Origin: an uncultured bacterium
GTDB lineage: Bacteria > Patescibacteriota > JABMPQ01 > CAVVCK01
NCBI GenBank assembly: GCA_963746775.1
Contig: CAVVCK010000001.1
Location: 339,050-403,049, forward strand
DNA length: 64,000 nt
Direction: 5' to 3'
Below the pieces are notes generated by a model. It saw only the letters and a list, made by a program, of their open reading frames with translations. It searched no databases and was not told the DNA's origin. Positions 6,932 to 63,420 of this stretch are shown one piece after another; position 1 is the stretch's first letter; each line of letters starts with the position of its first letter. The translations under genes were made by a program, and so were the position numbers.

Positions 6932-6943
6932 GACTTTTTTTGA

Positions 6944-7489: not shown

Positions 7490-7577
7490 AAAATATTTGT
7501 TATTTATACTCAAAATCACAAGAACATTGTGAAAACCCCTCCTACCTCCCCTTGGTAAGGGGAGAATTAAAATTATT

Positions 7578-8804
7578 CTATTCATACCGCAGCGCCTCAA
7601 TCGGATTCTTTCTCGCTGCCTTAACTGCCGGAGCCACTCCAAATATTATACCTACTAAAACTGAAATAGAAAAAGCCAAAACCAAAGCATATAAAGTAAT
7701 TTGTGGCTCAATTGGTGAATATTTCGATATAAAGAATGATCCTACATAAGCAAGCCCTACTCCCAATCCTCCACCTATTAAACTTATCACTGTGGCTTCA
7801 ATTAAAAACTGAACCATGATATTGCCAGACGTTGCACCCAAAGCTTTTCTAATGCCAATCTCTCGAGTACGTTCTGTAACAGATACCAACATAATATTCA
7901 TAATACCAATGCCGCCAACCAATAAAGATATAGCGGCAATACCAGAAAGCAAAGTGGTAATTAAGCTAATTATTTGCTCAAACATAGCTAACATATCTTG
8001 TTGAGTCATCACAGAAAAATCTTCATTGCCTTCATGTCTTTCCAATAATAATTCTTTGATTTGATTTTGTACGCTGCCAACTTCATCTTTATTACGTGCT
8101 TGCATAGTAATACGATTCAATTTATTAGTTTCAAACATCTCCTCAGCTACTGTAATCGGAATTACCGCCATTAAATTAGCATCGATTCCTATGCTACTTA
8201 ATCCTTCAGTTTTCATAGTACCTACTACTTCAAATTCTTCTTTATTTATTTCTATCTTTTTTTCCAAAGGGTCTTCTTCTCCAAATAAATCTTTTACTAT
8301 AGTATCACCTATTACCACAATTTTATTTTTATCATTCATGTCTTGATCATCAATAAATCTTCCTCTATTTAAATTATAAAATCCAATGAACTGCAATGTA
8401 GGCTCAGACCCTACTAGCATAGGTACTGCTTTTTTGCCCTCATAAATAAAATTGCCACCCACAAACATAATAGAAGAAACATTTTCTACCCCCTCAATCT
8501 TTTCTTCAATAGATTTTTTATCATCCAAAGTTAAAGTGGAAATACCAGCCACTCCGGCCATAGAAGACATACCGCCGCCATTACCATCATTATTGCCAGC
8601 TACTTGTCCCGGTAATACTATTATTAAATTAGACCCAATAGCTTCAATTTCAGAAGCTACTCCCTTTTTAACTCCTTCACCCATAGCTAGCAAAGTAATT
8701 ACGGAAGTAACTCCGATAATAATGCCAAGCATAGTCAAAAAAGCTCTAATTTTGTTAGATAGAATTGACTTTACAGCTATTTTTAGATTTTCTAATATAA
8801 GCAT
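7578..8804 (-). CDS. ABC transporter permease (MacB/FtsX family)
   Basis: N-terminal TM segment, a large periplasmic domain, then a C-terminal 3-TM FtsX domain. Confidence 0.85.
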   Translation of the reverse strand: MLILENLKIAVKSILSNKIRAFLTMLGIIIGVTSVITLLAMGEGVKKGVASEIEAIGSNLIIVLPGQVAGNNDGNGGGMSSMAGVAGISTLTLDDKKSIEEKIEGVENVSSIMFVGGNFIYEGKKAVPMLVGSEPTLQFIGFYNLNRGRFIDDQDMNDKNKIVVIGDTIVKDLFGEEDPLEKKIEINKEEFEVVGTMKTEGLSSIGIDANLMAVIPITVAEEMFETNKLNRITMQARNKDEVGSVQNQIKELLLERHEGNEDFSVMTQQDMLAMFEQIISLITTLLSGIAAISLLVGGIGIMNIMLVSVTERTREIGIRKALGATSGNIMVQFLIEATVISLIGGGLGVGLAYVGSFFISKYSPIEPQITLYALVLAFSISVLVGIIFGVAPAVKAARKNPIEALRYE

Positions 8805-9548: not shown

Positions 9549-9550
9549 CA

Positions 9551-9582
9551 GAAGTCCAGCTCCCTATAGGGAGCTGGACTTC
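9551..9582 (+). terminator. Perfect 14-bp-stem palindrome (GAAGTCCAGCTCCC TATA GGGAGCTGGACTTC) downstream of the pseudouridine synthase gene; likely terminator
   Basis: Perfect inverted repeat immediately after the stop codon, followed by TTATATT. It shares the CCCTATAGGG centre with family-4 palindromes. Confidence 0.5.
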
Positions 9583-9608
9583 TTATATTAACGATTTAGT
9601 TATTTTTT

Positions 9609-10647: not shown

Positions 10648-10679
10648 GAAATCCGAAACCCTATAGGATTTCGGATTCC
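10648..10679. repeat. Palindrome family 4 (AATCCGAAACCCTATAGGrTTTCGGATT)
   Basis: Near-perfect 32-bp palindrome between the DsbA-like and CcdA-like genes. A second copy is at 54621-54652. Confidence 0.7.
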
Positions 10680-10753
10680 CGCACTCACCTCCTCAAAAAA
10701 TAAAAAGTCCTGCTTTATTAGCAGGACAATTGTTAGCAATAATTAATATTTTA

Positions 10754-14755: not shown

Positions 14756-14800
14756 ATTTTATATTTATTCGCGAATTGATTTTATTTAAATTCATCTCTG

Positions 14801-14880
14801 GCACATACAGGTTTTAAACCTGCCTTGTACATACAGGTTTTAAACCTGCCTTGTACATACAGGTTTTAAACCTGTATCTA
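14801..14880 (-). repeat. REP-like family 1, three tandem units, fused to the gap stop codon
   Basis: ACATACAGGTTTTAAACCTG(CCTTGT) three times. The last unit ends CCTGTATCTAC. Confidence 0.8.
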
Positions 14881-15882
14881 CACCTTAATTCTACTCGCCT
14901 TTAATATATGCTCCAATAAAGTCCAAGAATATCCCATTTCGTTATCATACCAAGCTAAAATTTTTACCAAATCTCCATCTACAACATTGGTAAATTCACT
15001 ATCAACTATGGAAGGGCATTTATTTCCTACGATATCAGAAGAAACTAGAGGTACCCCAGATACTTTTATAATATTTTTCCATCTTGTTTCTTGTGATGCT
15101 TCTTCTAAAATTTTATTAACTTCTTCTTTGGATGTTTTCCTCTTAGCTATAAATGTAACATCAGCTATCGATCCACAAATATTAGGAACCCGAAGAGCTA
15201 GACCATCAAATAAATTTTCCAAAGATGTAACTACTTTCGTAACAGCAATAGCAGCGCCGGTTGTCGATGGAATAATATTTTCTGCTGCTGCTCTGCCACG
15301 ACGCATATCTTTTTTCTCCGAAGGACTATCAACCAAGCTTTGGGTTGCTGTATAGGCATGAACGGTATTGAGAATGGCTTTTTTTACACCTAATTTTTCC
15401 GATAAAATATCCATCACCGGTGCTACTGCATTAGTTGTACAAGAACCATTATTAGTAATTATATTGTCCTTTAATTTTTCTTCATTAATTCCTAATAGCA
15501 CTGTCTGCGCATCTTTAGAAGGAGCAGAAATAATTACTCTCTTTGCTCCTGCTCTAACATGTTTTTCCGCATCAGCTTTCTTGGTAAATACTCCTGTTGA
15601 TTCAATAACTACATCTATACCTAAATCTTTCCAAGGTAGCTTCTCCGGTTCTCTTTCTTGGCAAAATAATATTTCCTTGCCATCAACCATTAATTTGCCA
15701 TCACGGGTTTTAACATCTCCCTCATATTCCCCATAAACAGTATCGTAATCTAGAAGATAAGCTAAATTTTCTAAGTCTCCCAAATCATTTATACCAACAA
15801 TTTCTATTTCCGGATGCTGAAAAGCAAGACGAAAAAAGCCTCTTCCTATACGACCAAAGCCATTTATAGCTACTTTTATCAT
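14878..15882 (-). CDS. gap: Glyceraldehyde-3-phosphate dehydrogenase
   Basis: NAD-binding NGFGRIGR motif and the catalytic SCTTN motif. Confidence 0.9.
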   Translation of the reverse strand: MIKVAINGFGRIGRGFFRLAFQHPEIEIVGINDLGDLENLAYLLDYDTVYGEYEGDVKTRDGKLMVDGKEILFCQEREPEKLPWKDLGIDVVIESTGVFTKKADAEKHVRAGAKRVIISAPSKDAQTVLLGINEEKLKDNIITNNGSCTTNAVAPVMDILSEKLGVKKAILNTVHAYTATQSLVDSPSEKKDMRRGRAAAENIIPSTTGAAIAVTKVVTSLENLFDGLALRVPNICGSIADVTFIAKRKTSKEEVNKILEEASQETRWKNIIKVSGVPLVSSDIVGNKCPSIVDSEFTNVVDGDLVKILAWYDNEMGYSWTLLEHILKASRIKV

Positions 15883-15958: not shown

Positions 15959-15988
15959 AAGTAGGGAACAAAAATTTTTGTTCCTTAC
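15959..15988. repeat. GTAGG-headed palindrome (GTAGGGAACAAAAATTTTTGTTCCTTAC) upstream of gap
   Basis: 14-bp arms with one mismatch. Confidence 0.5.
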
Positions 15989-16132: not shown

Positions 16133-17210
16133 TTACCGTTTAGAATCTGGTTGGTATTTAGAAATAATTTCAGGCATATTGGCCTGTTTTTTAATTGTTA
16201 ATTCAAGGGGATATTTACCATTTAGATATTTGAATTTCTGACTACAATCAGTATATTTTTTTGTTCTTCTACGGATTAAATAAGCATTAAGAAATCTTTC
16301 AGCATTCTTAAATGATTTGAATCCTTTAATACTTGTTAGTCTAGCGTTTAAATGTGAATTGAATAGTTCTATTAGATTAGTATCTCTAGGACAGTGGGGT
16401 ATATTTTGGTAAGTGAATAGGTTTTCTTCTTTCTTGTAGATATCTATTAGAACACTTTGTCTTAATAAATTCTTTCTCGCATACTTGGTAAATATATTAT
16501 GTAAAGATTTGTTTAATTCTTCTTTAGTTTTTTTCTCCTCTACTTTACTTTTAAAAATATATTCATTAAGCTTGTGAAAAAATAGTAGGTGTTGTTCTTC
16601 CGTCCTTATTCTTGTTTTTTGTCTTATGTTTTCTAGATAATGATTGTGGCAAAGCTGTATTTTGGCTTTAGGATAATAGTACAAAAGCCCTGGTTTTAGG
16701 GCAGGCAGTATATCGTCACAGATAACTACTTGTAGTGGATAGTTACAAGTCTTTAATAATCTAAAGTATCTTCTAAAGGCTTCTTCATTCTCTGAAGGAG
16801 AAAGTATTCCTACAGGAAGATCATGCTTTAGATAATCAATACCGTAAATGAACGGTATTTTTTTATGGTAGCCTTTTACTTTTATGAACTTACCATCAAC
16901 TACAATAACACCTGAGAAGCGATTGCAATAGCTCATTGTTAGCCAAGTGTTATTAGATAAGCTATTCATTTCTTCTTCTACCTGAAGAAAAACTTTAGCA
17001 GGAGATATATTATTCTCATCAGCTAGTTTTCTAAAAGATATTCCATCAACATGTTAAATCCATAACTTTTTCTTTTTACTCCGATGATCAATTGAAAATG
17101 AGCTTTTACATATTTTACAATAATATCTTTTCCTACCATCTCTGCTACCCCATTTAATAGTTCTTTTACTTTTACACTTAGGACACTTTAATTTACGTTT
17201 TTTTTGTCAT
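16133..17210 (-). pseudogene. IS1-family transposase (InsA-like Zn-finger N-terminus plus InsB-like DDE domain), disrupted
   Basis: The 278-aa ORF carries TNLIELFNSHLNARLTSIKGFKSFKNAERFLNAYL (compare IS1 InsB [27 protein letters not shown]...YL). Upstream in the same frame, the reading is continuous across a TAA at 17054-17056. A Zn-finger segment (KLKCPKCKSKRTIKWGSRDGRKRYYCKICKSSF) lies further 5' and is only in frame with the ATG at 17208-17210 if the A8 run at 17198-17205 is read as A7. Confidence 0.65.
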
Positions 17211-17297
17211 GTTTTGCTTAATTAACTAGTTAAATCAGTATATTTTAACTAAATTAAGCTTTAAAATCAAGATTTACCAACCGAAATCTAAACGGTA
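16134..17297 (-). mobile_element. IS1-family insertion sequence (~1.16 kb) with 23-bp imperfect terminal inverted repeats and a 10-bp target-site duplication
   Basis: Left IR is TACCGTTTAGAATCTGGTTGGTA (16134-16156) and right IR is TACCAACCGAAATCTAAACGGTA (17275-17297), matching at 20 of 23 positions. Flanking direct repeats CCAACCAATA lie at 16122-16131 and 17299-17308. The internal transposase has the IS1 InsB-type signature. Confidence 0.8.
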
Positions 17298-17550
17298 TCC
17301 AACCAATACGAAACTGAGCATTCCCCGCTCTAGCCGGACCTTGATGATCGGTCTCTGTCCTCTGACAGTAGACACGGCCTCCATGACTTTCCGGACAATG
17401 TTGTAATTCACTATCCCCAGAAGTTTCAGCCACCATCACAGGCTCTGCATCTCCTTCTCTTCCAATCTTTAGCCCAAGCCTAACACCGTCTCCTATCGAA
17501 AAACCGGTATCAACCACATGATCTCCTTTTCCCATCTTCACGTCACTCAT
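17254..17550 (-). CDS. Small GC-rich hypothetical protein whose last ~21 codons were replaced by the IS insertion
   Basis: Joining the flanks at the target-site duplication reconstructs an uninterrupted C-terminus ...AQFRIGWATVFRNSGNEWYEN*. The current ORF instead reads into the IS right end (...RIGWIPFRFRLVNLDFKA*). Local GC is ~50% against ~30% background. Confidence 0.4.
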   Translation of the reverse strand: MSDVKMGKGDHVVDTGFSIGDGVRLGLKIGREGDAEPVMVAETSGDSELQHCPESHGGRVYCQRTETDHQGPARAGNAQFRIGWIPFRFRLVNLDFKA

Positions 17551-20190: not shown

Positions 20191-20213
20191 GGCAGGATAA
20201 GATCCTGCCCTAC
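20191..20213 (-). terminator. Palindrome family 3 (GTAGGGCAGGATCTTATCCTGCC + T-run on the minus strand); terminator after dfx
   Basis: GC-rich 7-8-bp stem followed by TTTTAT on the minus strand. A second copy at 59662-59684 follows the RND gene. Confidence 0.65.
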
Positions 20214-20617: not shown

Positions 20618-20742
20618 TTTTTTTTATTTTATTCCTACGAAACCCGTAGGATTTATTAATATATTATTATATCAAAAAATCGATTAACATAAAATATGCT
20701 TCGTACTTCCCTTCGTTCAAGGGAGAGAGGTACGAACTCATA

Positions 20743-22457: not shown

Positions 22458-22567
22458 ATTTCTTATTAGTAATTATTACTAATTAAATATTATTACTATT
22501 AATATTTTATGTCAAGAAAATTTGTGGATAACTAAAAAATGGGTTATAAACCCATCTCTACGATATC

Positions 22568-22652
22568 GTACATGCAGGTTTGAAACCTGTATTCCCAAAT
22601 ATACGGGTTTTAAACCTGTATTCCTGTACATGCAGGTTTTAAACCTGCATCT
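22568..22652 (-). repeat. REP-like family 1, three tandem units, fused to the trxB stop codon
   Basis: TACATGCAGGTTTGAAACCTGTATTCC, ATACGGGTTTTAAACCTGTATTCC and TGTACATGCAGGTTTTAAACCTGCATCTACC. Confidence 0.8.
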
Positions 22653-23565
22653 ACCTCTTTCCCGCCAAATACCGCGCCACCTTCAACAAGGCCATACACC
22701 CCTGCCCCGCTGATATTACATATTGATATTCATGGCCTGAAGCAACATCACCAGCAGCATATATGCCTGGCACATTAGTTTGCATTTGACAATCAACTTG
22801 AATATGCCCATCTTCATCTAATTCTACTATATCTTTAAAAGACTCCGTATTGGGCCTACGGCCAATTTCTATAATTACTCCTCTAACATTTATCTCTTTT
22901 ACCACTCCTTCTTGTTCAAATTTTAAACCAGATACTATTTTTTCACCTAAAATTTCTTTGGTATCAACATTATATAATATTTCCACTTTAGGATCATTAA
23001 TTGTCCGTTCCATTAAATATTCATGGCCCATTAATTTATCATCACGTACTATCAAATAAATTTTGGAAGCAATATTTTTCATAAAATCAACTGCTTCCAT
23101 AGCTGAATTACCTCCACCAATCACAGCCACCGGCATATCAGGAAATAAGGGGCCATCGCAGATAGCACAATAAGTTACCCCCCGACGAGCAAATTTATCT
23201 TCTCCTGGCACATTTAATTTACGTGATTTAGATCCAGTCGTTATAATTATTGATTTTGTTCTATATTTACTTTTATCAGTAATAACTTCAAAATCTATCC
23301 CTTCTTTTCTGACACTTTTTACATATTCACTAACAATTTCTACTTGATTAATTTCCATTTGCTTCTTCATAATAGATCTCAATTCAATACCAGTCGTCTG
23401 GATAATGCCAGGATAATTTAATATTTCTCCACTAACTAGAAATTGACCACCAAAATCTGGTGCAATGATTTTATAATTCATTCTCTTGCGAGAAGCATAA
23501 ATAGCAGCCGTTAAGCCCGACATACCAGCACCAATAATAATTGTCTCTAATTTATTTTCTTTCAT
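22651..23565 (-). CDS. trxB: Thioredoxin-disulfide reductase
   Basis: FAD motif GAGMSGLTAA, redox-active CAICDG and NADPH-binding GGGNSA. Confidence 0.9.
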   Translation of the reverse strand: MKENKLETIIIGAGMSGLTAAIYASRKRMNYKIIAPDFGGQFLVSGEILNYPGIIQTTGIELRSIMKKQMEINQVEIVSEYVKSVRKEGIDFEVITDKSKYRTKSIIITTGSKSRKLNVPGEDKFARRGVTYCAICDGPLFPDMPVAVIGGGNSAMEAVDFMKNIASKIYLIVRDDKLMGHEYLMERTINDPKVEILYNVDTKEILGEKIVSGLKFEQEGVVKEINVRGVIIEIGRRPNTESFKDIVELDEDGHIQVDCQMQTNVPGIYAAGDVASGHEYQYVISAGQGCMALLKVARYLAGKR

Positions 23566-27092: not shown

Positions 27093-27114
27093 GTAGGGGC
27101 AGAACAGCCCCTAC
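27093..27114. repeat. Palindrome family 5, short form (GTAGGGGCAGAACAGCCCCTAC)
   Basis: 8-bp GC stem. The long form is at 30004-30032. Confidence 0.6.
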
Positions 27115-27281: not shown

Positions 27282-28508
27282 ATGAAAAATATACTTAAAA
27301 AATTACAAGAAGGACACATTAAGTTTCACGAAATAGAAAAATATGCCTCAGCCAAAGAAGCATCTGAAATTAGATTACTTTTTATTGAAAAATTAGCTAA
27401 AAATAACTATTCCGAATTAAAAAACTATAATTTAGATCCTAAATTATTACAAAATAAAAATATAGAAAATTTTATAGGCTCAACTGAATTACCCCTAGGA
27501 ATTGCCGGACCGATTAAAGTCAAAGGAGAAAATTCCAATGGAGAATATTTTCTACCACTCGCAACAACCGAAGGCGCACTCGTTGCAAGTGTTAGTAGAG
27601 GCTGTAAAGTTGTAAATTTATCAGGAGGAACAAAAACTGATTTAGAATATATTGGCACCACCAGAGCACCGCTTTTTAGTGTTAAAGATTTAAAAACTGC
27701 CAGAGAATTTATAAATTGGGTTAATAAAAATATTGCTAAACTTAAAGAAGTCGTGGAAAAAGTTGATCCTTTTGTAAAATTAATCAAGATTGAACCATTT
27801 TCTTCCGGAAAAAATATTTGGCTTAGAATATATTTTAATACTTATGACGCTATGGGTATGAATATGGCTACCCAGGCTTCTCAGAAAATAGGAGAATATG
27901 CTGAAAAATATTTTAAATCCGTAAAATTAATTGCTACTTCAGGTAATTTGTGTGTTGATAAAAAAGCAAGTTCCATAAATGCTATCCTTAGCCGCGGCCG
28001 CAAGGTCCAAGCCGAATGTTTTATTAAAAATGAAGTTATAAAAAAATATTTACACACTACCCCAGAAAAATTAGTAGAAGTAAATCACAAAAAAACTTGG
28101 CAAGGAGCAGTTCTCTCTGGCAGCATCGCCGCCAATGCTCATATCGCTAATATTATTGCAGCTATCTTTATTGCCACTGGACAAGATGCCGCTCAATTAG
28201 TTGAATCCAGTTCAGGTAATACTACTTTTGAATTAGACAAAGATGGAGTTTATACTTGCGTCACCCTGCCTTCTTTAATGATCGGCACCGTTGGCGGTGG
28301 CACAGGTTTACCTAAACAAAGTGAAGCTATTAATTTAATGTTAAAGAATATAGGATCGTCCAAAGAAAAATCTAAATTAAATCGTACTAATAAATTAGCA
28401 GAAATTATAGCTAGTGCTTGTCTTGCAGGCGAGATAAGTTTGCATGGAGCCTTGGCTTCTGGACATTTGGCTTCTTCTCATATGAAGTTGGGGAAGGGAT
28501 TTAAATAA
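27282..28508 (+). CDS. hmgA: Hydroxymethylglutaryl-CoA reductase
   Basis: HMGR catalytic-domain motifs (EGALVASVSRGCK, DAMGMNM, GTVGGGT). Confidence 0.85.
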   Translation: MKNILKKLQEGHIKFHEIEKYASAKEASEIRLLFIEKLAKNNYSELKNYNLDPKLLQNKNIENFIGSTELPLGIAGPIKVKGENSNGEYFLPLATTEGALVASVSRGCKVVNLSGGTKTDLEYIGTTRAPLFSVKDLKTAREFINWVNKNIAKLKEVVEKVDPFVKLIKIEPFSSGKNIWLRIYFNTYDAMGMNMATQASQKIGEYAEKYFKSVKLIATSGNLCVDKKASSINAILSRGRKVQAECFIKNEVIKKYLHTTPEKLVEVNHKKTWQGAVLSGSIAANAHIANIIAAIFIATGQDAAQLVESSSGNTTFELDKDGVYTCVTLPSLMIGTVGGGTGLPKQSEAINLMLKNIGSSKEKSKLNRTNKLAEIIASACLAGEISLHGALASGHLASSHMKLGKGFK

Positions 28509-28916
28509 ATGAACAATATTATTGAGATAATTATATCCACTATAATAAGTACTGGAATTATTGCCGGAGTAATTAACTATTGGTTCGACAAAAAACTACG
28601 CACACACGAAATAAAACTTAAAAAATATATCGAATTAATAGAAGAGCTGGCTAAACTTATAGGAAGTGAAGCAAACTGGGATGATTTAAGGCCGCTACTT
28701 AATGAAGCTCTACTTTTTGCTTCCGATAATGTGGTCAAAGAAATATTGAAATTTAATATCCGGTTCAATGATAAAAGTAAAGATGCAAAAGAAGGTAAAT
28801 TTCAAATGACAGAGAAAGATATACAACCTTTAATTATTGCTATACGAGAAGAATTATATTTAAAATCAAAATCTATTAAAGAAAGTGGATTAACATTTTT
28901 TCGAAAAATAAATTGA
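28509..28916 (+). CDS. Hypothetical 135-aa protein (N-terminal TM) inserted between HMGR and HMGS
   Basis: ORF whose start overlaps the hmgA stop (TAAATG). Confidence 0.5.
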   Translation: MNNIIEIIISTIISTGIIAGVINYWFDKKLRTHEIKLKKYIELIEELAKLIGSEANWDDLRPLLNEALLFASDNVVKEILKFNIRFNDKSKDAKEGKFQMTEKDIQPLIIAIREELYLKSKSIKESGLTFFRKIN

Positions 28917-28917
28917 A

Positions 28918-29994
28918 ATGAAACCAAAAAACACCGTCGGCCTAATTTCCTACGGCACCGACATTCCTCAAAATAGAATAAAGATTAAAGATATAGCTCT
29001 CGCTTGGAATAAAGATCCTAAAGCAATAGAAGCTTCTTTAGGTGTGATTGAAAAAGCAATACCTTCTAAAGATGAAGACACTGTAACACTTGCTACTAAT
29101 GCAGCTCTTGAAGCAATGGAAAAATTAAAAAATAAACCAAATATAGGAGCAATTTATACCGGCTCAGAAAGTCATCCTTATGCAGTTAAATCCACTTCCT
29201 CAATAGTCGGTGAAGCCTTAGGTATTGGTAATAATTATACAGCCGCTGACCTAGAGTTTGCTTGCAAGGCTGGAACAGCTGGTGTACAAATGATAACAGG
29301 AATGGTCTCTTCTGGTATGATTGAATACGGAATAGCTATTGGAGCAGACACAGCTCAAAGTAAACCTGGCGATGCACTTGAATACGCTGCCGGTGCCGCC
29401 GGTGCATCATTTATTATTGGATCAAAGAAAGAAGAAATTATCGCTAAAATTTTATATACCGAAAGCTTTACATCCGATACTCCAGACTTCTGGCGCCGAG
29501 AACATCAAGTCTATCCTTCCCACGCTGGCCGCTTCTCCGGAGAGCCTGCGTACTTTAAACATATAATTAGAGCAGTTCAGAATACTTTAAAAAATACCAA
29601 ATCCCGAAGGGTCGCCGGAGAGGCGACAAAAATATCTGATTTTGATCATGTTGTTTTTCATATGCCTAATGCTGCCTTCCCCCGCAAAGCTGCTAAAATC
29701 TTAGGAGTTACAGATAAACAATTACAAGCAGGCTTTATCGGACCATATTTAGGAAATAGCTATTCTGCCTGTTCTTTGGTAGGTTTAGCCTCCGTTCTAG
29801 ACCAAGCTAAACCCAAAGATAAAATATTATTATGCTCATACGGATCAGGTAGTGGCAGTGATTGTTTTGTAATGGAAGTAACAGAGAATATTAAGAAGCT
29901 TAAGAAGACAAAAACAGTTCAAGATAAAATTGATAATAAAGAATATATTAGTTATACAGAATATTTAAAGAATATGGGGAAATTGAAGATGTAA
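28918..29994 (+). CDS. Hydroxymethylglutaryl-CoA synthase (archaeal-type)
   Basis: Active-site Cys context LEFACKAGTAG and the C-terminal SYGSGSG motif. Confidence 0.8.
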   Translation: MKPKNTVGLISYGTDIPQNRIKIKDIALAWNKDPKAIEASLGVIEKAIPSKDEDTVTLATNAALEAMEKLKNKPNIGAIYTGSESHPYAVKSTSSIVGEALGIGNNYTAADLEFACKAGTAGVQMITGMVSSGMIEYGIAIGADTAQSKPGDALEYAAGAAGASFIIGSKKEEIIAKILYTESFTSDTPDFWRREHQVYPSHAGRFSGEPAYFKHIIRAVQNTLKNTKSRRVAGEATKISDFDHVVFHMPNAAFPRKAAKILGVTDKQLQAGFIGPYLGNSYSACSLVGLASVLDQAKPKDKILLCSYGSGSGSDCFVMEVTENIKKLKKTKTVQDKIDNKEYISYTEYLKNMGKLKM

Positions 29995-30003
29995 ACGCTA
30001 GAT

Positions 30004-30032
30004 GTAGGGGCAGAACACTGTTCTGCCCCTAC
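30004..30032. repeat. Palindrome family 5, long form (GTAGGGGCAGAACA CTG TGTTCTGCCCCTAC)
   Basis: Perfect 13-bp arms between HMGS and the thiolase. Confidence 0.7.
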
Positions 30033-30046
30033 AATAAATAAAATCA

Positions 30047-31189
30047 ATGAAAGAAATCTACATAAAAGGCACCGGCCTAACAAAATTCGGTGAAGTTTGG
30101 AATAAAGATTTAAGAGATCTTGCTTTTGAGGCGGGAATAAAAGCTATTAAAGACGCTAAAATTGATTTGCAAGAAATCGATGCTATTTATGTTGCTAATA
30201 TGAAAGCCGGAGAATTCGCCGGACAAGATCACCTGGGAGCCTTAGTTTCAACTATTTTTAATTTAGATATACCAGCTTTCCATATAGAAGCTGCTTGTGC
30301 TTCCGGAGGTGTAGCTATAAACCAAGCCTATCTGAGTTTGCTATCTGGAAAATACAAAAATATCTTAGTCCTTGGAGTTGAGAAAATGACTGACCAAGAT
30401 GCAACCAATACTACTAAAGGATTAGCCGGAGCTGCTGACGAAGAATGGGAAGCACACTACGGCGCAACCTTCCCCTCCCTTTACGCCATGATCGCTCAAG
30501 AACATATGCGTAGATACAAAACCATCAGAAAAGATTTAGCTCTTATCGCTTGTAAAAATCATCACAACGCCACTTTTAATGAATACGCTCAATACCAAAA
30601 AGAAATAACCGTTGATAATGTCTTAAATGCTTCGCCCATCGCTGAACCTTTAGGATTGTTAGATTGCTCCCCTATCACTGATGGTGCTGCAGCAGTTATT
30701 TTGTCAAACAACAGAAAAAGTAAAGTTAAATTAATAGCCTCAGAAGTTACTACCAGTACTCTAGCCCTTCATGATAGAAAAGATATTACAACCCTAGATG
30801 CAGCCATTAAAGCTTCCCAGAAAGCTTATCAGTCCATCAATATTAAACCACAAGATATAGACATAGCCGAAGTACATGATTGTTTTACTATTGCCGAACT
30901 TCTAGCTTATGAAGATTTGGGCTTCTGTAAAAAAGGTGAAGGAGCAAAATTAATCAGATCAGGTAAATTAAATTTAGATGGATCACTACCTATCAATACT
31001 TCCGGTGGACTTAAAGCCTGTGGCCATCCAGTAGGTGCAACTGGTATTAAACAAGTCATAGAAATAGCTACTCAACTAGAAGGTAAAGCTGGAAAACGAC
31101 AAGTTAAGAAAAATTTAAAATACGGGCTAACACATAATATTGGTGGCAGTGGTGCCACAGCTGTAGTAAATATTTTAACCAAATCATAA
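30047..31189 (+). CDS. Archaeal-type thiolase (acetyl-CoA C-acetyltransferase / SCP-x-like)
   Basis: Thiolase fold with catalytic Cys context EAACASGG and the C-terminal GHPVGATG motif. Confidence 0.8.
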   Translation: MKEIYIKGTGLTKFGEVWNKDLRDLAFEAGIKAIKDAKIDLQEIDAIYVANMKAGEFAGQDHLGALVSTIFNLDIPAFHIEAACASGGVAINQAYLSLLSGKYKNILVLGVEKMTDQDATNTTKGLAGAADEEWEAHYGATFPSLYAMIAQEHMRRYKTIRKDLALIACKNHHNATFNEYAQYQKEITVDNVLNASPIAEPLGLLDCSPITDGAAAVILSNNRKSKVKLIASEVTTSTLALHDRKDITTLDAAIKASQKAYQSINIKPQDIDIAEVHDCFTIAELLAYEDLGFCKKGEGAKLIRSGKLNLDGSLPINTSGGLKACGHPVGATGIKQVIEIATQLEGKAGKRQVKKNLKYGLTHNIGGSGATAVVNILTKS

Positions 31190-31587
31190 TGTATAAAGGT
31201 TCATCGCCTAAATCCTGGCGAAAATATAAAACTAAATATAGACTACTGGGCAATCAAGGAACAAAATCAGGTAAAAAATATTATCCACCTGTTTTTGTAT
31301 CTAAAAAAAATCCCTCAGAAAAATTAAAAGAATATAAATTTAAACCAGAAGGAAAATTAATCACTTGGTCTATTGTTCACGGCGCACCTAAGGGCTATGA
31401 AGAATACGCACCCTATATCATTGGTATAATAGAACTAGAAGAGGGTGAACGAATAACCTCTCAAATAGTTAATGTAAAAAAATCACAATTAAAATACGGC
31501 CTTAAATTGAGAGCCGTCTTTAGAAAAATATATCAGGATGGTGATAAGGGAATTATTGATTATGGATTGAAGTTTACTTTAAAATAA
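31189..31587 (+). CDS. DUF35-family OB-fold protein (partner of archaeal thiolase/HMGCS complex); Zn-ribbon cysteines absent
   Basis: Start overlaps the thiolase stop (ATAATG). OB-fold-like core (GKLITWSIV...YIIGIIELEEGERITSQI). Confidence 0.55.
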   Translation: MYKGSSPKSWRKYKTKYRLLGNQGTKSGKKYYPPVFVSKKNPSEKLKEYKFKPEGKLITWSIVHGAPKGYEEYAPYIIGIIELEEGERITSQIVNVKKSQLKYGLKLRAVFRKIYQDGDKGIIDYGLKFTLK

Positions 31588-31671
31588 AATTAACAATCAT
31601 AAAAAGAGGCTAAACTTTTTTAAGTCTGAGTCTCTTTTTTATTCTTAATTTTTATTTCCTATTTTAAATTA

Positions 31672-33594
31672 TTAGTTCACACCATGCCAGTTTTCTATAA
31701 CTGCAATCCCTACTCCATTTCGAAGGGTAGGATCACCAAAAGCAAAGAAATTAGGAGTCGGTCTGAGGATACCTGAAGGCTCATAACCTAAGATATGAGG
31801 ACCATTAGAGCCTATAGGAGAAATAAGTAACTCTTGGGCTTCATCGGCAGGATCCAATTGAGCTGCTCGAATAGTAAAGTCTCCTCTAACTTGTTCTTCA
31901 TAGACCCACCAGAAATTCTTTCTTTCTCCCTCTTTGTCAAAGGCGTTTACTTGGGAAGAACCGTTATTAGGAGTAGTGTAGATCCTTTCTCCGGCACCGA
32001 CAGCAGTTAAACCTTGATTAATAGCTGTTTCATAAGCTAGAAAATGATTATACAATAATGACCCATCTGCTTTGTAAATATAGACGTAGGGATCAGCCGG
32101 ACCATGATTAGGGGTAACTAATATTTCATCAGCTCCATCATTGTATTGGAAAGTACCTAAATTACAGCCTACATCTTGAAAGGGTGCTTCAAATTCAGCA
32201 GACTTTACCCAGTTATCTATACCTGATACATCGGTATAAACTCGGACCAAAGGAGCCCTGTCACCAGTTAGACAAAAAGCAGCATCATCTTGAAAACCAT
32301 CATTATCAAAATCTCCTGATGTGGCCGATAATCCATCTCTAATAGATGAATCAAAGACAAACATTTGACCTAAAGAAGATAAAGAACTATCTTCTTTTAA
32401 CCCACGAACAAGAGCTTGAGGACCACCATTATTAATAGCAAATAATAAAAATTGATCTAAAACACCATTATTATTCTGATCTATAGGAATAATCCCTGCT
32501 CCACCTAGATATGATTCGGGAAAAAGATCGGTAATATCTTCTTCTAATAAAGAATTACTGCCATCCGTAGTTGCTTTGGAGTAAGCTTGAAGACGAGTTG
32601 GTTCGCCAGGACCAGAGGTTGTAAGAATTTTGGGAGAAATAGTTAGCCCTTCCGTCTCAGATTTTTCTTCGTCGGATTGTTCAGTGTTTGTAGCTACAAA
32701 ATAAGTGGCATGATCAACCGTAAAACTACATTGCTCCTCACTTACAGTACATTCAGTTTCATTGGCCCAAGCCTCCCCACCTTCTTCAAGTGACTGGATT
32801 CGCAAAGTCATACCTTCATATCCTGAACCAACATTTAGAGAAACAGTAACATTTTTACTAAAATTAAGGTTTAAACCAGGAATTCCTAATCTAATAGCTA
32901 AAACAGGATCACCTATTATATTAGTCGAAGGCAGATTATCAATATCGACAACCTGATTAACCATTCTATAAAATTCAAAGCTCCCTCCTTCACTACGTGT
33001 TACCACAGTATCTACAGGAAAAGTTACCGTCGTTCTATTTGAGCTAAATTCCCATTCTTCCTCAATAGTAACATTTGATGACTCGGCAGTATTAGCAATA
33101 GTTACCCCTTTAGCATCCGGTAGAGCAGCAAGTTCCTCAGGGGTATACCACTTTTGATTATTAAGCCTATCAGAAACAAGAAACCAGCCCACTTCCCAAA
33201 TCCCCACTTTAGACCATCTCGGAATAGTTGCTGTACCAGTATAAGTTCCAGATTTATCATCGCCCGAAACTCTTGTAATCTCAAAACTAGTATACTGCGT
33301 CCCAATCAACGCCTTTATAGCCAACCAAGGAGGACTTCCAACCTGAGTACCATCCCAATCACAGTCGTCATAGACACAAACCCCCGAAAGGTCATCAGAA
33401 ATAACAGCTTCAAAGGTAAGAGTTTGAGCGCTATCAGAAGTATTGATTTCTGCCGGCATTATACTAAATGACTCTATAACCGGAGGTGTTCGATCTTCTT
33501 CTGCCTTAACTTTCGGCACATTTATTGATAAAGTCAGAGAACAAAATACAATCATCAAAGCAACTACAATCAAATTACTTACTACTTTTTTCAT
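31672..33594 (-). CDS. Large secreted protein with FG-GAP/VCBS-like repeats
   Basis: Signal peptide and the motif SGDFDNDGFQDD. Confidence 0.5.
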   Translation of the reverse strand: MKKVVSNLIVVALMIVFCSLTLSINVPKVKAEEDRTPPVIESFSIMPAEINTSDSAQTLTFEAVISDDLSGVCVYDDCDWDGTQVGSPPWLAIKALIGTQYTSFEITRVSGDDKSGTYTGTATIPRWSKVGIWEVGWFLVSDRLNNQKWYTPEELAALPDAKGVTIANTAESSNVTIEEEWEFSSNRTTVTFPVDTVVTRSEGGSFEFYRMVNQVVDIDNLPSTNIIGDPVLAIRLGIPGLNLNFSKNVTVSLNVGSGYEGMTLRIQSLEEGGEAWANETECTVSEEQCSFTVDHATYFVATNTEQSDEEKSETEGLTISPKILTTSGPGEPTRLQAYSKATTDGSNSLLEEDITDLFPESYLGGAGIIPIDQNNNGVLDQFLLFAINNGGPQALVRGLKEDSSLSSLGQMFVFDSSIRDGLSATSGDFDNDGFQDDAAFCLTGDRAPLVRVYTDVSGIDNWVKSAEFEAPFQDVGCNLGTFQYNDGADEILVTPNHGPADPYVYIYKADGSLLYNHFLAYETAINQGLTAVGAGERIYTTPNNGSSQVNAFDKEGERKNFWWVYEEQVRGDFTIRAAQLDPADEAQELLISPIGSNGPHILGYEPSGILRPTPNFFAFGDPTLRNGVGIAVIENWHGVN

Positions 33595-33749
33595 TTTTAT
33601 AAATTAATTATTAAAAATAAAAAACCCGCATTAAAAAATACAGGTATCAATTAATCAAATCTATATAAACTTTTTTCATTTTGTTTTAATTTGTTTTTTT
33701 ATTATAGCATGAAAATATTATTTAACCAAATTATTTTTCGAGACTCCCT

Positions 33750-34739
33750 CTATCTAGTAATATTCACCCTATAAAAATCCATTTTATTCTCTTTTAAAAA
33801 ATTTTCTATCTTCTCCTGATCCCCACCAAAACAAATCAAAGCTCCACTCCCTTCACCTTTATGCGCTCCCGCCCCAGATACCTTTGTATGACCACCTAAA
33901 TTACTCAGATCATTAATTAACTTTTGCGTCTTAGAAGTTACAATCCCTAAATCAATTAGTTCTTCTCCTGCCATATCTATAATTTTATAAAATTTTTCTT
34001 TGTTATCTTCCTCCAAGGCATCAATTAAATCGTAAGTTAATTTTTCTAAATTCTTAAATATTTTCCCTGCTTTAGCAGGATCTTTTTTAATATTATTTTT
34101 AACAAATTCAACTACCTCGCCAGTCAAAGCTTCCGGATTTCCAGAATTTATTATTAAAATGTCATTCAAAATATCTGACTCTATTTCTAATTTCTCATAA
34201 TCAAATCCCTCTTTCTTCTTCCGATATTTCATCAACCCTCCATAAATTATAGCAATTTGATCTAGTCCACTGGACTTGTAACCATGAAATTTAGTCTCCA
34301 CTTCCATGGCAATCTTAAACAAATCTTCTTTGTTCAATTCTTTTTTAAAATTTTTTGATAAAGCCTTAGCCATGCTCACAATAACGCTAGTCGATACTCC
34401 GCATCCTCCAAGAGGTGCTTCTTTTTCAATCTCTATCACTATTGGTTGAACATCCTTAACCTTTAAATATTTTAAAACTACGTTTAAGCTAATTTTAAAA
34501 AGTTTATCCCTCTTATTATTATATTTAAAACTATCTCCTAGCTTTAAAATTTCTTTAATATTATATTCGCCCCTATAATTGTTCTCTTTGTCCTCAACAA
34601 TAATCATTTCTCCATTAAAAAGCTTAACTTCACAATAACAATACATATTTATCGCACAAACTAAAGCAGGCTTACCATACACAACACTATGCTCTCCTAT
34701 TAAAATTATTTTTGTTGGGGATTTTTCTCTTATAGGCAT
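33750..34739 (-). CDS. GHMP-family kinase, probable mevalonate kinase
   Basis: GHMP ATP-binding motif (APLGGCGVSTSV) and genomic proximity to HMGR/HMGS. Confidence 0.6.
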   Translation of the reverse strand: MPIREKSPTKIILIGEHSVVYGKPALVCAINMYCYCEVKLFNGEMIIVEDKENNYRGEYNIKEILKLGDSFKYNNKRDKLFKISLNVVLKYLKVKDVQPIVIEIEKEAPLGGCGVSTSVIVSMAKALSKNFKKELNKEDLFKIAMEVETKFHGYKSSGLDQIAIIYGGLMKYRKKKEGFDYEKLEIESDILNDILIINSGNPEALTGEVVEFVKNNIKKDPAKAGKIFKNLEKLTYDLIDALEEDNKEKFYKIIDMAGEELIDLGIVTSKTQKLINDLSNLGGHTKVSGAGAHKGEGSGALICFGGDQEKIENFLKENKMDFYRVNITR

Positions 34740-35504: not shown

Positions 35505-35545
35505 TTTTTTTGTACGTAGTACCGGCCTCTCCAGGCCGGTACACA
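35505..35545. repeat. GTAG-headed GC palindrome (GTAGTACCGGCC TCTCCA GGCCGGTAC)
   Basis: 9-bp GC-rich stem in an AT-rich spacer upstream of the MBL gene. Confidence 0.5.
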
Positions 35546-35827
35546 TTATTCACCAAACGAACTAATATCTATTTTTTTCAAATCATTTGGTTCTTTATTC
35601 AAACATAATTACCCAAGCATAATATGCAAAATGGAATTTATTTTTATAAAAATTTAAATTTTCTAAAATAATTTTACACAAAATTTGATCTTTAAAATAA
35701 GGGATTCTCTTATATGTACAAAAAGTTAAGAAATATATTTTTTTATTTAAAATTAATCTCAGTGGATGCATATATCTCATTAGCATACCAACCCTGGGGG
35801 GGTTGCTACTACGAAAACAAATAATAT

Positions 35828-49302: not shown

Positions 49303-49357
49303 GGTTTTATGGTAGGATTATAACATAAATTTTATAATTTTATTGATATTTTATATG

Positions 49358-49387
49358 TAGGTTGGGTTGAGTACTCGAAACCCAACA
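49358..49387. repeat. REP-like palindrome family 2 (GTAGGTTGGGTTGAGTACTCGAAACCCAAC)
   Basis: 8-bp stem GTTGGGTT/AACCCAAC. Copies are at 51890 and 59626. Confidence 0.75.
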
Positions 49388-51889: not shown

Positions 51890-51919
51890 GTAGGTTGGGT
51901 TGAGTATTCGAAACCCAAC
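51890..51919. repeat. REP-like palindrome family 2 copy
   Basis: GTAGGTTGGGTTGAGTATTCGAAACCCAAC. Confidence 0.75.
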
Positions 51920-51947
51920 CATTAAAATATATTAATAAAAAATAATT

Positions 51948-54568: not shown

Positions 54569-54620
54569 AAAATAGAGATTAGAAATTAGTTATCAAATTT
54601 CCATACACCAATTATAAAAA

Positions 54621-54652
54621 GGAATCCGAAACCCTATAGGGTTTCGGATTCC
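54621..54652. terminator. Palindrome family 4 (perfect 32-bp GGAATCCGAAACCCTATAGGGTTTCGGATTCC) between convergent genes; probable bidirectional terminator
   Basis: Perfect 15-bp stem. Second copy at 10648-10679. Confidence 0.6.
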
Positions 54653-54693
54653 TGCATCAAATTTCTTTAGTTTTCAACAATTTAACAATTTAT

Positions 54694-59625: not shown

Positions 59626-59718
59626 GTAGGTTGGGTTGAGTACTCGAAACCCAACAAAAAAGGCAGGATACGATCCTGCCCTACAATATTGTTGTACATA
59701 CAGGTTTCAAACCTGTAT
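59626..59718 (-). repeat. Cluster of three different REP-like palindromes between the RND gene and msrB: family 2 (59626-59655), family 3 (59662-59684) and family 1 (59694-59718)
   Basis: GTAGGTTGGGTTGAGTACTCGAAACCCAAC, GGCAGGATACGATCCTGCCCTAC and GTACATACAGGTTTCAAACCTGTAT lie consecutively, 6 bp after the RND stop. Confidence 0.8.
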
Positions 59719-59724
59719 TTCTAA

Positions 59725-62700
59725 TTAGCCAACAACCTTCCTCCCAAACCTCCCCCTAAACCACCCAAATATTCTCTCCACCATATTAATTACAATCGGC
59801 AAAACTATCAAATTACCAATAGTGGCAAAAGTTAAACCGAAAATTACAGTTGTCCCCAATCCTCTCCAGAAAGGATCTTGAATTGTTAGGGGTACAATGG
59901 CGGCAATAGTAGTAATAGAAGTAGAAAAAATAGGTTTAAATCTCATCTTGCCAGTCTCAACTAGCGCTTCAGATAATTTTTGATTTTTATCTCTCTTTCT
60001 TAATCTATTGAAATAATCAATAAAGACAATGGCATCATTAACCACAATACCTACTAGAGTTATTACACCTAAACCGGAGATCATATCCAGTGAACTTCCT
60101 ACCGCATAAAGTGCTGGAAAAACACCAATCAAAGCCACTGGTACTGCCAACATAATCATTAAAGGCTGTAAGTAAGAATTAAATTGATAAGCTAAGATCA
60201 AAAAAACAGCTATAATAGCAATAATAAAGGTAACTAAAAGCTTGTTAAAGTCAGTAGCAATATCAGAAGCAAAGCCGCCGTAAGCAATACTATCTTCATC
60301 TAGACCAAAATCATTCAGTCTGTCTTTATTTAGATAATCTTGGATATCTTTTTGTACTTTAGTAATTTCAGCTGCCTTATCCTCATCAGCTACATCTAAA
60401 TATATTTGGTAAGAAACCGACCTTGCCCCATCAATAAAGTTAATCGATTGAGCCTTGTCCTCCGACTTTACTTCCGCTATATCAGACAATTTAATAGGCT
60501 TTATACCTTGCACTCCTACAATTAAATTTTTTATATCATCGATAGATTTTTTAGAATTTTCATTGAATAATAATTTTACTCCATCTTGCCTACCGCCTTC
60601 TCCAATAGTTACTTTGCCTAAATCAGATTCAGAAAAGACGCTATTTACAATCATAGAAGTAGTCAGCGGTGCAATACCATATTCTTCTATTTTATTTTTA
60701 TCAAAATTAATCTCTATAGAAGGAACTAAATTATCTTTTAGCTCATTGCTAATCTTATTAATTTTAAAATCTCCATTATCTTCTTTTCCTACAACAAAAC
60801 TGTCTAACCCCTCTATAGTTTTTTTAATAGCTTCTCCATCGGTATTTTTTACTTCTACAATAACATCATAAGAGGAAGAGGTTGGGCCATAGCCTTGAGC
60901 ACCAACACTAATAGTAGTATCTTGAGGTGCCCTATCTCTAATATAATTAATTTTTTCGTTCAAATTATCTACAATAGTATAGACTGTAGTATCTTTATCA
61001 TTTCTTCTTTTTGATGGATCAGTTATTAAAATAAATAGCTGCCCTTGCATCATAAATGAACCTTCGAAATACGGTACTTTTATGGCTTCTTTCATTAAAT
61101 CAGAAGTTATTTCTTTCTTTACTTCATTGCTTGTCCCTACTGGAAAATCCATGCTTATACTAAATTGCTGGGTATCAGTCATAGGAAATTGAGAAGATTT
61201 CACCTTGCCTGTTCCTACTAAAGACATACTATAAATAAATCCAGCCAATAGAATCAAAACTATAGCTAATTTATAAGTCCATTTTCTATAAACCCTAGAC
61301 ATAAATCGGCCATAAACTTCCACTAGTTTATCAATCATTTTCTGGCCATAAAAAACTATAGCTGGCAAAACTAAATATTTTTGTGATTTGGTTAATCTTC
61401 TTTCTTTTCTTTCTTCTTCTGTCTCTTTCTTTAAAATCCATTTACCTAGAAGTGGAGTAATACTAATGGCTAAAAAATAAGATACCACTAACATAATAAT
61501 CATAGTATAGGGAATATATTTCATAAATTCCCCTATAATTCCACCCATTCTGGCAGCCGGAATGAAAACTACCACTGTTGTCGCTGTAGCTGAAGTTACC
61601 GCCGGACCTAAATCGCGAATAGTACTCAGTGCTGCTTTTAATTTGCTGTCTCCGTACTTACTCATGCGATGCTGCATACCTTCAGCAATAACAATAGCAT
61701 TATCAACTATAATACCTAGGGTCAAAATCATAGCAAAGGTTGTCAGAATATTAATAGTAAAGCCCAGCTCGTAGAGAATAAATAAAGTTATTAAGAAAGA
61801 AAAAGGGACAATCAGTGATACTACTAAGCCTGCCCTAATATCAATAAAAAACATAAAGACAACCAATATAATAATTAAACCAAAAATCCCATTGCGAAGC
61901 AGCGTTGATATTTGAGTCTCTACATAGGTTGAAGAATCATAAGTTAAATCGATATTAATATTTTCATCTAGAATATTTTTATCATAAATTTTATCTATGG
62001 CCGCCGTAATATCTTTTTTCATCTTAATAACATCTCCCTTGTCTTGTTTAATCAACATTAGATATACTGCCTGATCACTATATTGAGGCTGCCCATCTCT
62101 TAAAAATCCAGCTGCCAATTGAGTATCACCTGACTTCGCTTCTTCCGTTATCTCGGCTATTTCCGATAATTTAGAACCATCAGCCAAAGTTATATTTTTA
62201 ATATCGTCTATTTGGCTTACAGGATTATTAATAGTAATTTGCTTAGAAATATTAGTCTCCTCATCTGTAATGCTTCCTCCAGGCAAGACCTGTAAATTAG
62301 CTTGGATAATTTGCTTTACAGTATTTACATCCAATCTTTTCTCCTGAAGCGCTTTGGCATCAAGCTTGATTTTTACATCAAAATCAGTTTCTGGCATTAC
62401 CTGCACTTCTTTGATTTCTTTACTTTCTTTTTCTAAATATTCTTTTACCTTGGGTGCTTTTTTAATTATTTCATTGTAGGAAATTTTATCACTAGATAAA
62501 ACGTAAACCAAAGAAGGACCAGCTGCATCCTCTGTACCCACATTAATATCCACACCATCCGGCAAGCTAGCTTTATTAGCTAGCTCATTAAATTCAGTAA
62601 TAGTTTTATTAATAGTTTCTTTATCAAAACTCTTAGTCTCGATTACTACGCTTCCATAATTAGCATAAGCTGATGATCTCATCTTTGCTACTTCCTTATG

Positions 62701-63262: not shown

Positions 63263-63342
63263 AAAATTGTATTTATTACTATCTCTATTTAATTATTTTT
63301 TAATGTTTGTGTCAATTTTAAAATCTTCGAAACCACATTCTT

Positions 63343-63420
63343 ATACATGCAGGTTTTAAATCTGTATTCCAATATATAACCTATATTCCAATATATACAG
63401 GTTTCAAACCTGTATCTACC
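63343..63420 (-). repeat. REP-like family 1, two units with a degenerate middle unit, fused to the rlmN stop codon
   Basis: ATACATGCAGGTTTTAAATCTGTATTCC ... ATATACAGGTTTCAAACCTGTATCTACC. The overlapping ORF 63289-63498 is rejected. Confidence 0.75.

Follow-up and report, generated by a model that had tools for sequence, protein, structure and literature searches.

What kind of element fills a 93-bp spacer with three unlike hairpins in a row? The spacer (positions 59626-59718) separates an RND gene from msrB in a 64-kb stretch, called the window here and analysed over its full 64,000 nt, of the 547,309-bp contig CAVVCK010000001.1 from an uncultured bacterium of the Patescibacteria. The initial annotation of this DNA had described at least six families of GTAG-headed palindromes, three of them stacked in this spacer, and had likened them to repetitive extragenic palindromes (REPs), whose GTAG is read by REP-associated tyrosine transposases (RAYTs). 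Work on REP and RAYT has been devoted almost wholly to Proteobacteria; surveys have extended to Cyanobacteria, Bacteroidetes and a few other phyla, and no description of either from Patescibacteria or the candidate phyla radiation was found in the searchable literature. The analysis reported here indicates that the elements of the window are probably repeats of the REP/GTAG-tagged superfamily in a Patescibacteria (Parcubacteria-type) genome, for which a RAYT-type spread is suggested by analogy. The element type is a known one; new here are the Patescibacteria setting and the stem sequences.

The spacer consists of the following units.

59626-59655, plus strand: family 2 unit GTAGGTTGGGTTGAGTACTCGAAACCCAAC, GTAG followed by a GTTGGGTT / AACCCAAC stem with a 10-nt loop, without T-run
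59662-59684 (59656-59684 with its T-run), minus strand: family 3 unit GGCAGGATacgATCCTGCCCTAC, GTAG on the minus strand, putative terminator of the RND gene
59692-59724, minus strand: family 1 unit (GTACATACAGGTTTCAAACCTGTAT at 59692-59718), immediately 3′ of the RND stop codon

Folding of 59626-59718 gave three independent hairpins (z scores of -6.6 for DNA and -4.8 for RNA), so that the stacking of families 2, 3 and 1 described initially was recovered, and all listed sequences of that description were found at, or 1-2 nt from, the positions given for them. Read on the minus strand, the family 3 unit at 59656-59684 is GTAGGGCAGGATcgtATCCTGCC, i.e., GTAGGGCAGGAT..ATCCTGCC followed by TTTTTT. 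The head of the family 1 copy is degenerate and reads TTAG instead of GTAG. A tRNA-Ser(tga) called by ARAGORN at 59655-59742 was rejected: the Rfam tRNA model reported nothing there, and the call is made of the family 3 and family 1 hairpins together with the end of the RND gene, which makes it probably a false positive due to the repeats.

The window has a G+C content of 32% and carries most of its genes on the minus strand. The sources of close homologues of its GAPDH, RND transporter and HMG-CoA synthase assign these to Patescibacteria, Parcubacteria or Paceibacterota. Within these 64 kb, to which all repeat counts refer, about 26 units belonging to at least six GTAG-tagged families were counted, all of them intergenic and with perfect stems of 8-14 bp; the GTAG-tagged units cover about 0.8 kb of the roughly 10.6 kb of intergenic DNA. 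For the family 1 core CAGGTTTNAAACCTG, 11 occurrences were counted and 0.19 expected; they form five clusters (4889-4961, 14789-14881, 22556-22654, 59692-59718, and 63336-63419), each directly 3′ of a minus-strand gene. Family 2 comprises five units at four loci, namely three singles and one inverted pair, families 3, 4, and 5 have two loci each, and every family other than 1 and 2 is limited to one or two loci. Outside the spacer of origin, the units of families 2 and 5, together with a two-hairpin repeat, are placed as follows.

6025-6092, no strand: inverted pair of family 2 units, heads outward, REPIN-like; the right CTAC contains the TAG stop of the Bro-N gene
7480-7564, minus strand: two-hairpin repeat CTCCCCTTaccAAGGGGAG-GTAGG-AGGGGTTTTCACAA..TTGTGA, 3′ of FtsX
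27093-27114, no strand: family 5 unit GTAGGGGCagaacaGCCCCTAC, flanked by the divergent genes for inositol phosphatase and HMG-CoA reductase
30003-30033, no strand: full family 5 palindrome TGTAGGGGCAGAACactGTTCTGCCCCTACA between the HMG-CoA synthase and thiolase genes, without T-run
49357-49386, plus strand: family 2 unit in a divergent spacer
51890-51920, plus strand: family 2 unit 3′ of a C39 peptidase-like gene, without T-run

Units of families 5 and 2 are thus also found in divergent promoter spacers and within the mevalonate operon. The sequence at 6027-6090, initially taken as a long variant of family 2, is present and is actually the inverted pair of two family 2 units spanning 6025-6092. 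The block of genes for a Bro-N and a CYTH domain protein bordered by this pair and by the two-hairpin repeat 7480-7564 (6089-7642, between FtsX and LytR) is absent from the syntenic region of the relative L051.

Whether GTAG marks the hairpins or merely the intergenic DNA was decided by a listing of all intergenic hairpins with a perfect stem of at least 8 bp and at least three G/C pairs (n = 27). GTAG at the 5′ foot or CTAC at the 3′ foot was present in 14 of the 27, the mirror arrangement in one, and random intergenic positions gave 4.7%. This enrichment is significant by locus (binomial p = 2.6e-12) and remains so when each family is counted once (6/17, p = 8e-5), and the orientation of the heads is likewise non-random (sign test, p = 0.001). 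The bare tetranucleotide GTAG is not enriched in intergenic DNA (observed/expected 1.06), and the signal therefore belongs to the hairpins. The suggestion that nearly all palindromes begin with GTAG nevertheless went too far: family 4 has no GTAG, CCTACGAAACCCGTAGG (20633-20651) carries the tag reversed and inside the stem, and the family 1 copy of the 93-bp spacer has TTAG. A search of viral contigs with family 2 gave no match, and a literature search with the repeat sequences returned unrelated primer matches only. Cyanobacterial repeats may resemble family 2 (GGTTGGGTT...AACCCAACCTAC), a likeness that was not used as evidence.

Evidence for mobility comes from family 1 and from the orthologous loci of relatives. 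Syntenic DNA was taken from L049 (GAPDH 85% identical); L051, L052, and L054, parts of one 1.05-Mb contig of a relative with proteins 68-85% identical; L055-L057, from a relative with 80% identity in HMG-CoA synthase; and L058, L060, and L061, short contigs of other relatives (GAPDH of L061, 83%). Besides the copy 3′ of the RND gene, four family 1 clusters are present.

4889-4961, minus strand: two units 3′ of LytR, whose stop reads G-TAG, followed by a second GTAG and hairpin
14789-14881, minus strand: three tandem units with a 26-nt period 3′ of GAPDH, TAG stop within the GTAG head
22556-22654, minus strand: three units 3′ of TrxB, TAG stop within the head, adjoined by the hairpin 22539-22555
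63336-63419, minus strand: two to three units 3′ of RlmN, TAG stop within the GTAG head

TAG is used as stop by only 10 of the 58 open reading frames (ORFs) of the window, and in five of these (genes starting at 4962, 6089, 14878, 22651, and 63416) the TAG together with the G before it forms the GTAG head of a unit of family 1 or 2, or abuts it; in four of the five family 1 clusters the head supplies the stop of the upstream gene. The orthologues of the affected genes end in TAA, or in a TAG located elsewhere in L049, and their last residues differ: TrxB ends ..GKE* or ..GKEG* in relatives vs ..GKR* in the window, RlmN ..GEDK* vs ..GER*, LytR ..YLK* vs ..YLR*, and GAPDH ..NKI* (in L049) or ..NKYK* vs ..RIKV*, with the GAPDH of the window extending past the TAG of L049. 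The ends of these genes were thus overwritten by the repeats, and where insertion of family 1 and family 2 units replaced native TAA stops, the GTAG head now gives a TAG stop.

Family 1 is absent from the corresponding spacers of relatives. The GAPDH-PfkB spacer, 122 nt with three units in the window, measures 37 nt in L049 and 6 nt in L051, and the LytR-ABC spacer of 123 nt is reduced to 16 nt with a TAA stop in L051. No family 1 unit stands 3′ of RlmN in L052, where the spacer has 35 nt and the stop is TAA, or 3′ of TrxB in L054 and L055. Across about 57 kb of the 1.05-Mb relative, no GTAG-headed hairpin with a perfect stem was detected at all. With four orthologous spacers lacking it, family 1 represents a recent expansion specific to this lineage. 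Presence and absence in orthologous spacers, initially proposed as a sign of mobility, distinguishes four sites in the case of family 1, and was also seen with families 2 and 5 as far as spacers are comparable; all three are lineage-specific insertions.

Exchange of one unit for another is seen in the spacer at 27093, between the divergent genes for inositol phosphatase and HMG-CoA reductase; its flanks are conserved in four lineages. The window has family 5 there, L058 a family-1-like hairpin, L055 a REPa-REPb doublet (two palindromes described below with the RAYT gene), and L054 no repeat unit; the hairpin of L058 is inserted beside a GTAC that is already present at the unoccupied L054 site. 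Between the HMG-CoA synthase and thiolase genes, four relatives share a conserved multi-hairpin element of about 120-200 nt, which is replaced in the window by the 31-nt family 5 palindrome. Further units occur at unrelated places: a family-2-like unit GTAGGTTGGATTGAAGCTTTAGCGAAACCCAAC lies at an unrelated locus of L061, and the 29-nt core tested from the two-hairpin repeat 7480-7564 recurs with one mismatch at a non-orthologous locus of L055. Related units at different loci in different genomes are the pattern predicted by mobile repeats.

As for the conserved spacer itself, its three hairpins in relatives are CTCCCCTT..AAGGGGAG, AGGGGTTTCGTG..CACGAAACC.CCCC, and CCCCTCCTT..AAGGAGGGG (L055 9825-10008, L054 11060-11179, L058 3242-3373, L060 2366-2565), and it may be a structured RNA. 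The mevalonate pathway genes around it (27282-34739) encode HMG-CoA reductase, HMG-CoA synthase, thiolase with an OB-fold partner, and mevalonate kinase; among the next-best matches of the HMG-CoA synthase, several are archaeal. This synthase also contains an in-frame insertion of 24 nt at 29605-29628, CGAAGGGTCGCCGGAGAGGCGACA (RRVAGEAT), which is absent from five close homologues and holds the palindrome GTCGCC-GGAGA-GGCGAC with a loop similar to that of REPa, and possibly represents a REP-like insertion within a gene.

A transposase of the expected kind exists in this lineage. L055 has an intact RAYT gene of 174 aa between a gene for a metallo-beta-lactamase-fold protein (MBL) and nfo. The protein bears the motifs DHLH (DHLHLL), WQ, and YIHYNP (YIHYNPVKH), in agreement with the class 2 RAYT signatures of PMC6006769, and matches Pfam Y1_Tnp (6.6e-13). 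Its single match among solved structures is E. coli TnpAREP (PDB 4ER8, 1.8e-17), aligned through the HUH and Y motifs, with no IS608-type TnpA among the solved-structure matches at E up to 0.01. On both flanks of the gene stands GTA(A/G)TACCGGCCTCTC(C/T)AGGCCGG, upstream also ACCAACCCAGGGGGGTCGGTACTAC, and GTAGTACC... palindromes flank both the gene of L055 and its remnant in the window. There, the MBL-Nfo spacer of 336 nt is occupied as follows.

35516-35542, plus strand: REPa GTAGTACCGGCCTCTCCAGGCCGGTAC, on the 3′ side of the RAYT remnant
35545-35771, minus strand: RAYT (TnpAREP) pseudogene, codons 1-58 at 35598-35771, with 3′ remains at the DNA level below 35597
35788-35812, minus strand: REPb GTAGTAGCAACCCCCCCAGGGTTGG, upstream of the RAYT remnant

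The remnant is 78% identical to the L055 RAYT (tblastn, E 5e-26) and its flanks are 73-81% identical (blastn). The copy of the window is dead because the stretch for the HUH and Y motifs has been deleted; the lineage possesses a RAYT, and the same locus in the window has lost the catalytic core. Queries with E. coli RayT and IS608 TnpA, run by phmmer against all six frames of the window, gave no match because only the poorly conserved N-terminus survives, and the stump was found via the syntenic relative. When the 58 residues were used as query, one cluster was recovered at E < 1e-10 among 1.84 billion representatives; judged by this N-terminal query, the RAYT subfamily is rare in public data. 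The REP character and RAYT link proposed initially, together with the suggested search for a RAYT gene, thus led to correctly oriented GTAG heads and to a truncated RAYT beside the palindrome that had been listed as a single at 35516, with an intact orthologue in L055.

REPa is present in three copies in L055, two flanking the intact RAYT and one dispersed, and an inverted REPa-12 nt-REPb doublet is dispersed at L055 7292-7365. L055 has copies related to REPb both beside the RAYT and at dispersed sites, and L061 has two. In the window both palindromes are single-copy and located only at the RAYT remnant, and no RAYT stands beside families 1, 2, or 5; the link of the RAYT to these families is a putative one. 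REPb also appears in L061 at 1858-3300, where a MNT/HepT toxin-antitoxin pair is inserted 3′ of GAPDH between direct repeats of about 60 nt that contain REPb, followed by a duplicated, stop-interrupted 3′ end of GAPDH.

Comparison with known systems places the units closest to the GTAG REP superfamily of Di Nocera, De Gregorio and Rocco 2013 (PMC3733652), which comprises 24 families in 8 phyla. Its members are 20-40 nt long, with stems of 6-14 bp, loops of 3-10 nt and GTAG unpaired or partly paired at one end; their termini can supply the TAG stop of flanking genes, and copies inside genes are occasional. The window resembles that description in having several families per genome, in the arrangement as singles, inverted dimers and tandem groups, and in the location mostly downstream of ORFs. 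It differs in the Patescibacteria host at 32% GC, the AT-rich stems, and the new stem sequences, and in that family 1 and family 5 have GTAG itself paired with a far-end GTAC or CTAC. Of the characters by which REPs are recognised, the stem-loop, the strand-specific GT[AG]G foot, the extragenic location, and presence or absence at orthologous sites were observed; as to dispersal in many copies, the 64 kb contain 11 family 1 units at five loci and five family 2 units at four. Two inverted REPs, the mark of a REPIN, are found in the family 2 pair 6025-6092 and at L055 7292-7365, while most window units are single or tandem. The L055 RAYT, with its own GTAG palindromes flanking it and dispersed as an inverted pair, has the layout of a REPtron or REPIN-RAYT system (TnpAREP 4ER8; Pseudomonas REPINs; PMC3116915, PMC8266576), a REPtron arrangement known from other phyla (PMC3733652). 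In contrast to such systems, the RAYT of the window is a stump of 58 codons and its flanking palindromes are not the abundant families. The L055 protein shares with IS200/IS605 elements the Pfam Y1_Tnp fold family and would share with them the recognition of subterminal hairpins on single-stranded DNA, but it has RAYT-type WQ and YIxxNP motifs, and the repeats are not the ends of an insertion sequence, nor is a tnpB present. A CRISPR array, for which repeats of 24-48 nt and unique spacers of like length would be expected, was rejected in view of the 26-32 nt periods, the 5-11 nt between 21-nt hairpins, and the maximum of three units.

Based on these comparisons, the following mechanism can be proposed. 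Each unit is a hairpin-former of 20-35 nt with GTAG at its 5′ foot. By analogy with studied enzymes, a RAYT (TnpAREP, a Y1 HUH transposase) would bind the folded single strand, reading GTAG and the hairpin, and would cut and rejoin next to the hairpin, whereby units would spread into intergenic DNA, often flush with gene 3′ ends. The enzymes of E. coli, S. maltophilia and Marinomonas are documented to bind and cleave single-stranded REP in dependence on GTAG (PMC8266576). The mover of families 1, 2, and 5 may have been the RAYT described here before its decay or another RAYT encoded outside the window; slippage and recombination may also account for these families. A more far-reaching version, which we consider doubtful, is that several structurally different GTAG families were served by one RAYT reading little beyond GTAG and hairpin, or went on spreading after its decay, with REP sites as preferred landing pads, so that one spacer was re-occupied in sister lineages by unlike families, and with insertions routinely rewriting last codons and stops.

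The best surviving alternative, though an unlikely one, is that REP-like repeats have spread without any RAYT, by slippage, by gene conversion or recombination, or through another transposase acting in trans in the manner of miniature inverted-repeat transposable elements (MITEs). Family 1 consists mostly of tandem arrays with periods of 26-32 nt, the RAYT of the window is inactive, and the window contains an IS256/Mutator-type fragment (16133-16969) as a possible other transposase; in the literature there are REP families without dedicated transposase (CGTC type), and some species hosting GTAG repeats may lack REPtrons. Slippage, however, accounts for arrays and not for new loci, and no terminal inverted repeats of IS256 type or target duplications surround the units. 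The units share the GTAG required for RAYT cleavage in tested systems (PMC8266576), and the RAYT of the clade has GTAG-tagged flanks. A MITE of a DDE transposon was rejected as such, the units being simple hairpins of 21-35 nt without flanking duplications and the only DDE gene a truncated, unrelated fragment of IS256 type. The ORF of this IS256/Mutator-family transposase matches the C-terminal half of the Pfam model only, and one Logan contig ends inside it.

A second alternative, that all hairpins are ordinary terminators or mRNA-stabilising stem-loops that arose in place and took their GTAG from neighbouring TAG stops, is quite improbable for the set as a whole and has real merit for a part of it. 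With T-runs scored in the sense of the upstream gene, the following hairpins, besides the family 3 unit of the 93-bp spacer, resemble intrinsic terminators in having GC-containing stems followed by T-runs.

10648-10680, minus strand: family 4 palindrome, without GTAG, terminator-like
15961-15988, plus strand: single GTAGGGAACAAAAATTTTTGTTCCTTAC, whose transcribed minus strand reads hairpin, then CTAC and a T-run
20191-20213, minus strand: family 3 unit with T-run, putative terminator of the superoxide reductase gene
22539-22555, minus strand: GTAG-headed hairpin ATGGGTTtatAACCCAT with T-run, beside the family 1 cluster 22556-22654
54620-54653, minus strand: family 4 palindrome, without GTAG, putative terminator of the IMPDH gene

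Orthologous positions retain the hairpins of family 3 (6-7 T in 8) and family 4 as well as the single at 15961, and the changes that their stems show there are compensatory or one-sided. At the superoxide reductase site of L055/L056 the family 3 orthologue has a G-U pair and no GTAG, and 3′ of the RND gene in L052 it reads GTAGAGCAGGATtatATCCTaCTCTTTTT; a similar hairpin 3′ of the neighbouring cold-shock gene of L052 uses G-U pairing, which points to a function at the RNA level. In L049 the orthologue of the single at 15961 shows compensatory stem changes and T8, and that of family 4 at 10648 has a T-run and compensatory changes from C-G to T-A. To judge from their T-runs and conservation, family 3, family 4, and the 15961 single are old conserved elements predicted to act as intrinsic terminators, and the hairpin at 22539 would, by its T-run, work in the same way. 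The terminator role initially assigned to family 3 is supported by the T-run, by conservation of both copies at orthologous sites, and by the G-U-paired hairpin of L052; this family and the single at 15961 appear to be GTAG-tagged elements retained for their putative terminator function. Concerning family 4, its two palindromes share with a third long palindrome at 9550-9583 the common centre CCCTATAGGG (CCCTATAGGA in one copy); two of the three have stems of 15 bp, and none has GTAG.

The terminator account is further favoured by the five GTAG heads that overlap stop codons. Extending it to all units fails on several grounds. Families 1, 2, and 5, REPa (35516) and REPb (35788) have no T-run, unlike intrinsic terminators, so that the outcome initially named as refuting the REP reading, palindromes that are all terminators with T-runs, does not apply. 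Several such units are located between divergent promoters or within an operon (27093, 30003, 49357). Near-identical units of 25-30 nt recur at unrelated loci and at other loci of other genomes, some GTAG heads are far from stop codons, and the clade has a RAYT gene flanked by such units.

That the units are sites of a DNA-binding protein with many targets, such as operators, nucleoid or gyrase sites, or uptake signals, is highly improbable: the sequences are palindromic and passages of PMC3733652 hypothesise a REP role in DNA supercoiling, but at least six unrelated stems have GTAG alone in common, most units lie at gene 3′ ends or overlap stops and not promoters, and units are absent from orthologous sites in relatives. 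An artefact of the metagenome-assembled genome is hardly credible, for although short-read Logan contigs of the same organism terminate within family 1, family 2, family 4, and the two-hairpin repeat, contig L001 of the independent assembly Logan ERR11571143, whose ends lie inside the family 2 unit 59626-59655 and the family 4 palindrome 54620-54653, is 100% identical to the window across the 5,030 bp checked, and the 8.4-kb contig L047, which like one of 2.0 kb has exact protein matches to window genes, runs unbroken through the family 1 cluster 4889-4961 and the family 2 pair 6025-6092.

Against the assignment to RAYT-spread REPs, several points have to be counted. The sole RAYT copy in the window is dead, and REPa and REPb are single-copy there, with stems unlike those of the abundant families 1, 2, and 5. 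The tandem arrays of family 1 could have expanded by slippage and not by transposition, the family-1-like unit of L058 is without GTAG, and family 3, family 4, and the single at 15961 act like ordinary conserved terminators. The history of family 1 rests on one genome: its 21-nt core (ATRCAGGTTTNAAACCTGYAT) formed no repeat in GTDB representative genomes (10 single unrelated matches) or JGI metagenome contigs (35 such matches), collections that hold neither the source genome nor its close kin. These points leave REP/GTAG-tagged repeats in a Patescibacteria genome as the probable reading.

Two further spacers of the window attracted attention. The segment 19400-19850, about 450 nt with 47-55% G+C and no convincing ORF, gave folding z scores of -7.6 (plus strand) and -5.5 (minus strand) vs shuffles, and at its plus-strand 3′ end a hammerhead-like core CUGAUGAG ... 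CGAAA was found (Rfam Hammerhead_3, 24 bits, below the gathering score); in L051 the corresponding spacer is only 215 nt long. The G+C-rich ORF 17254-17550 (98 aa) lies in an AT-rich spacer and has recognisable homologues in L049 and L050 (120 and 101 aa) that occupy the corresponding position, with no Pfam match on record for the homologue.

Taken together, the GTAG-tagged units of the window alter how housekeeping genes end, in C-terminus and stop codon, take the place of a conserved structured spacer, supply putative terminators, and break short-read assemblies. An intact RAYT in one lineage and a decayed one at the same locus in another constitute a natural experiment on the fate of REPs after loss of the transposase. 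For those annotating genomes of candidate phyla, false tRNA calls and contig breaks are to be expected at such elements.

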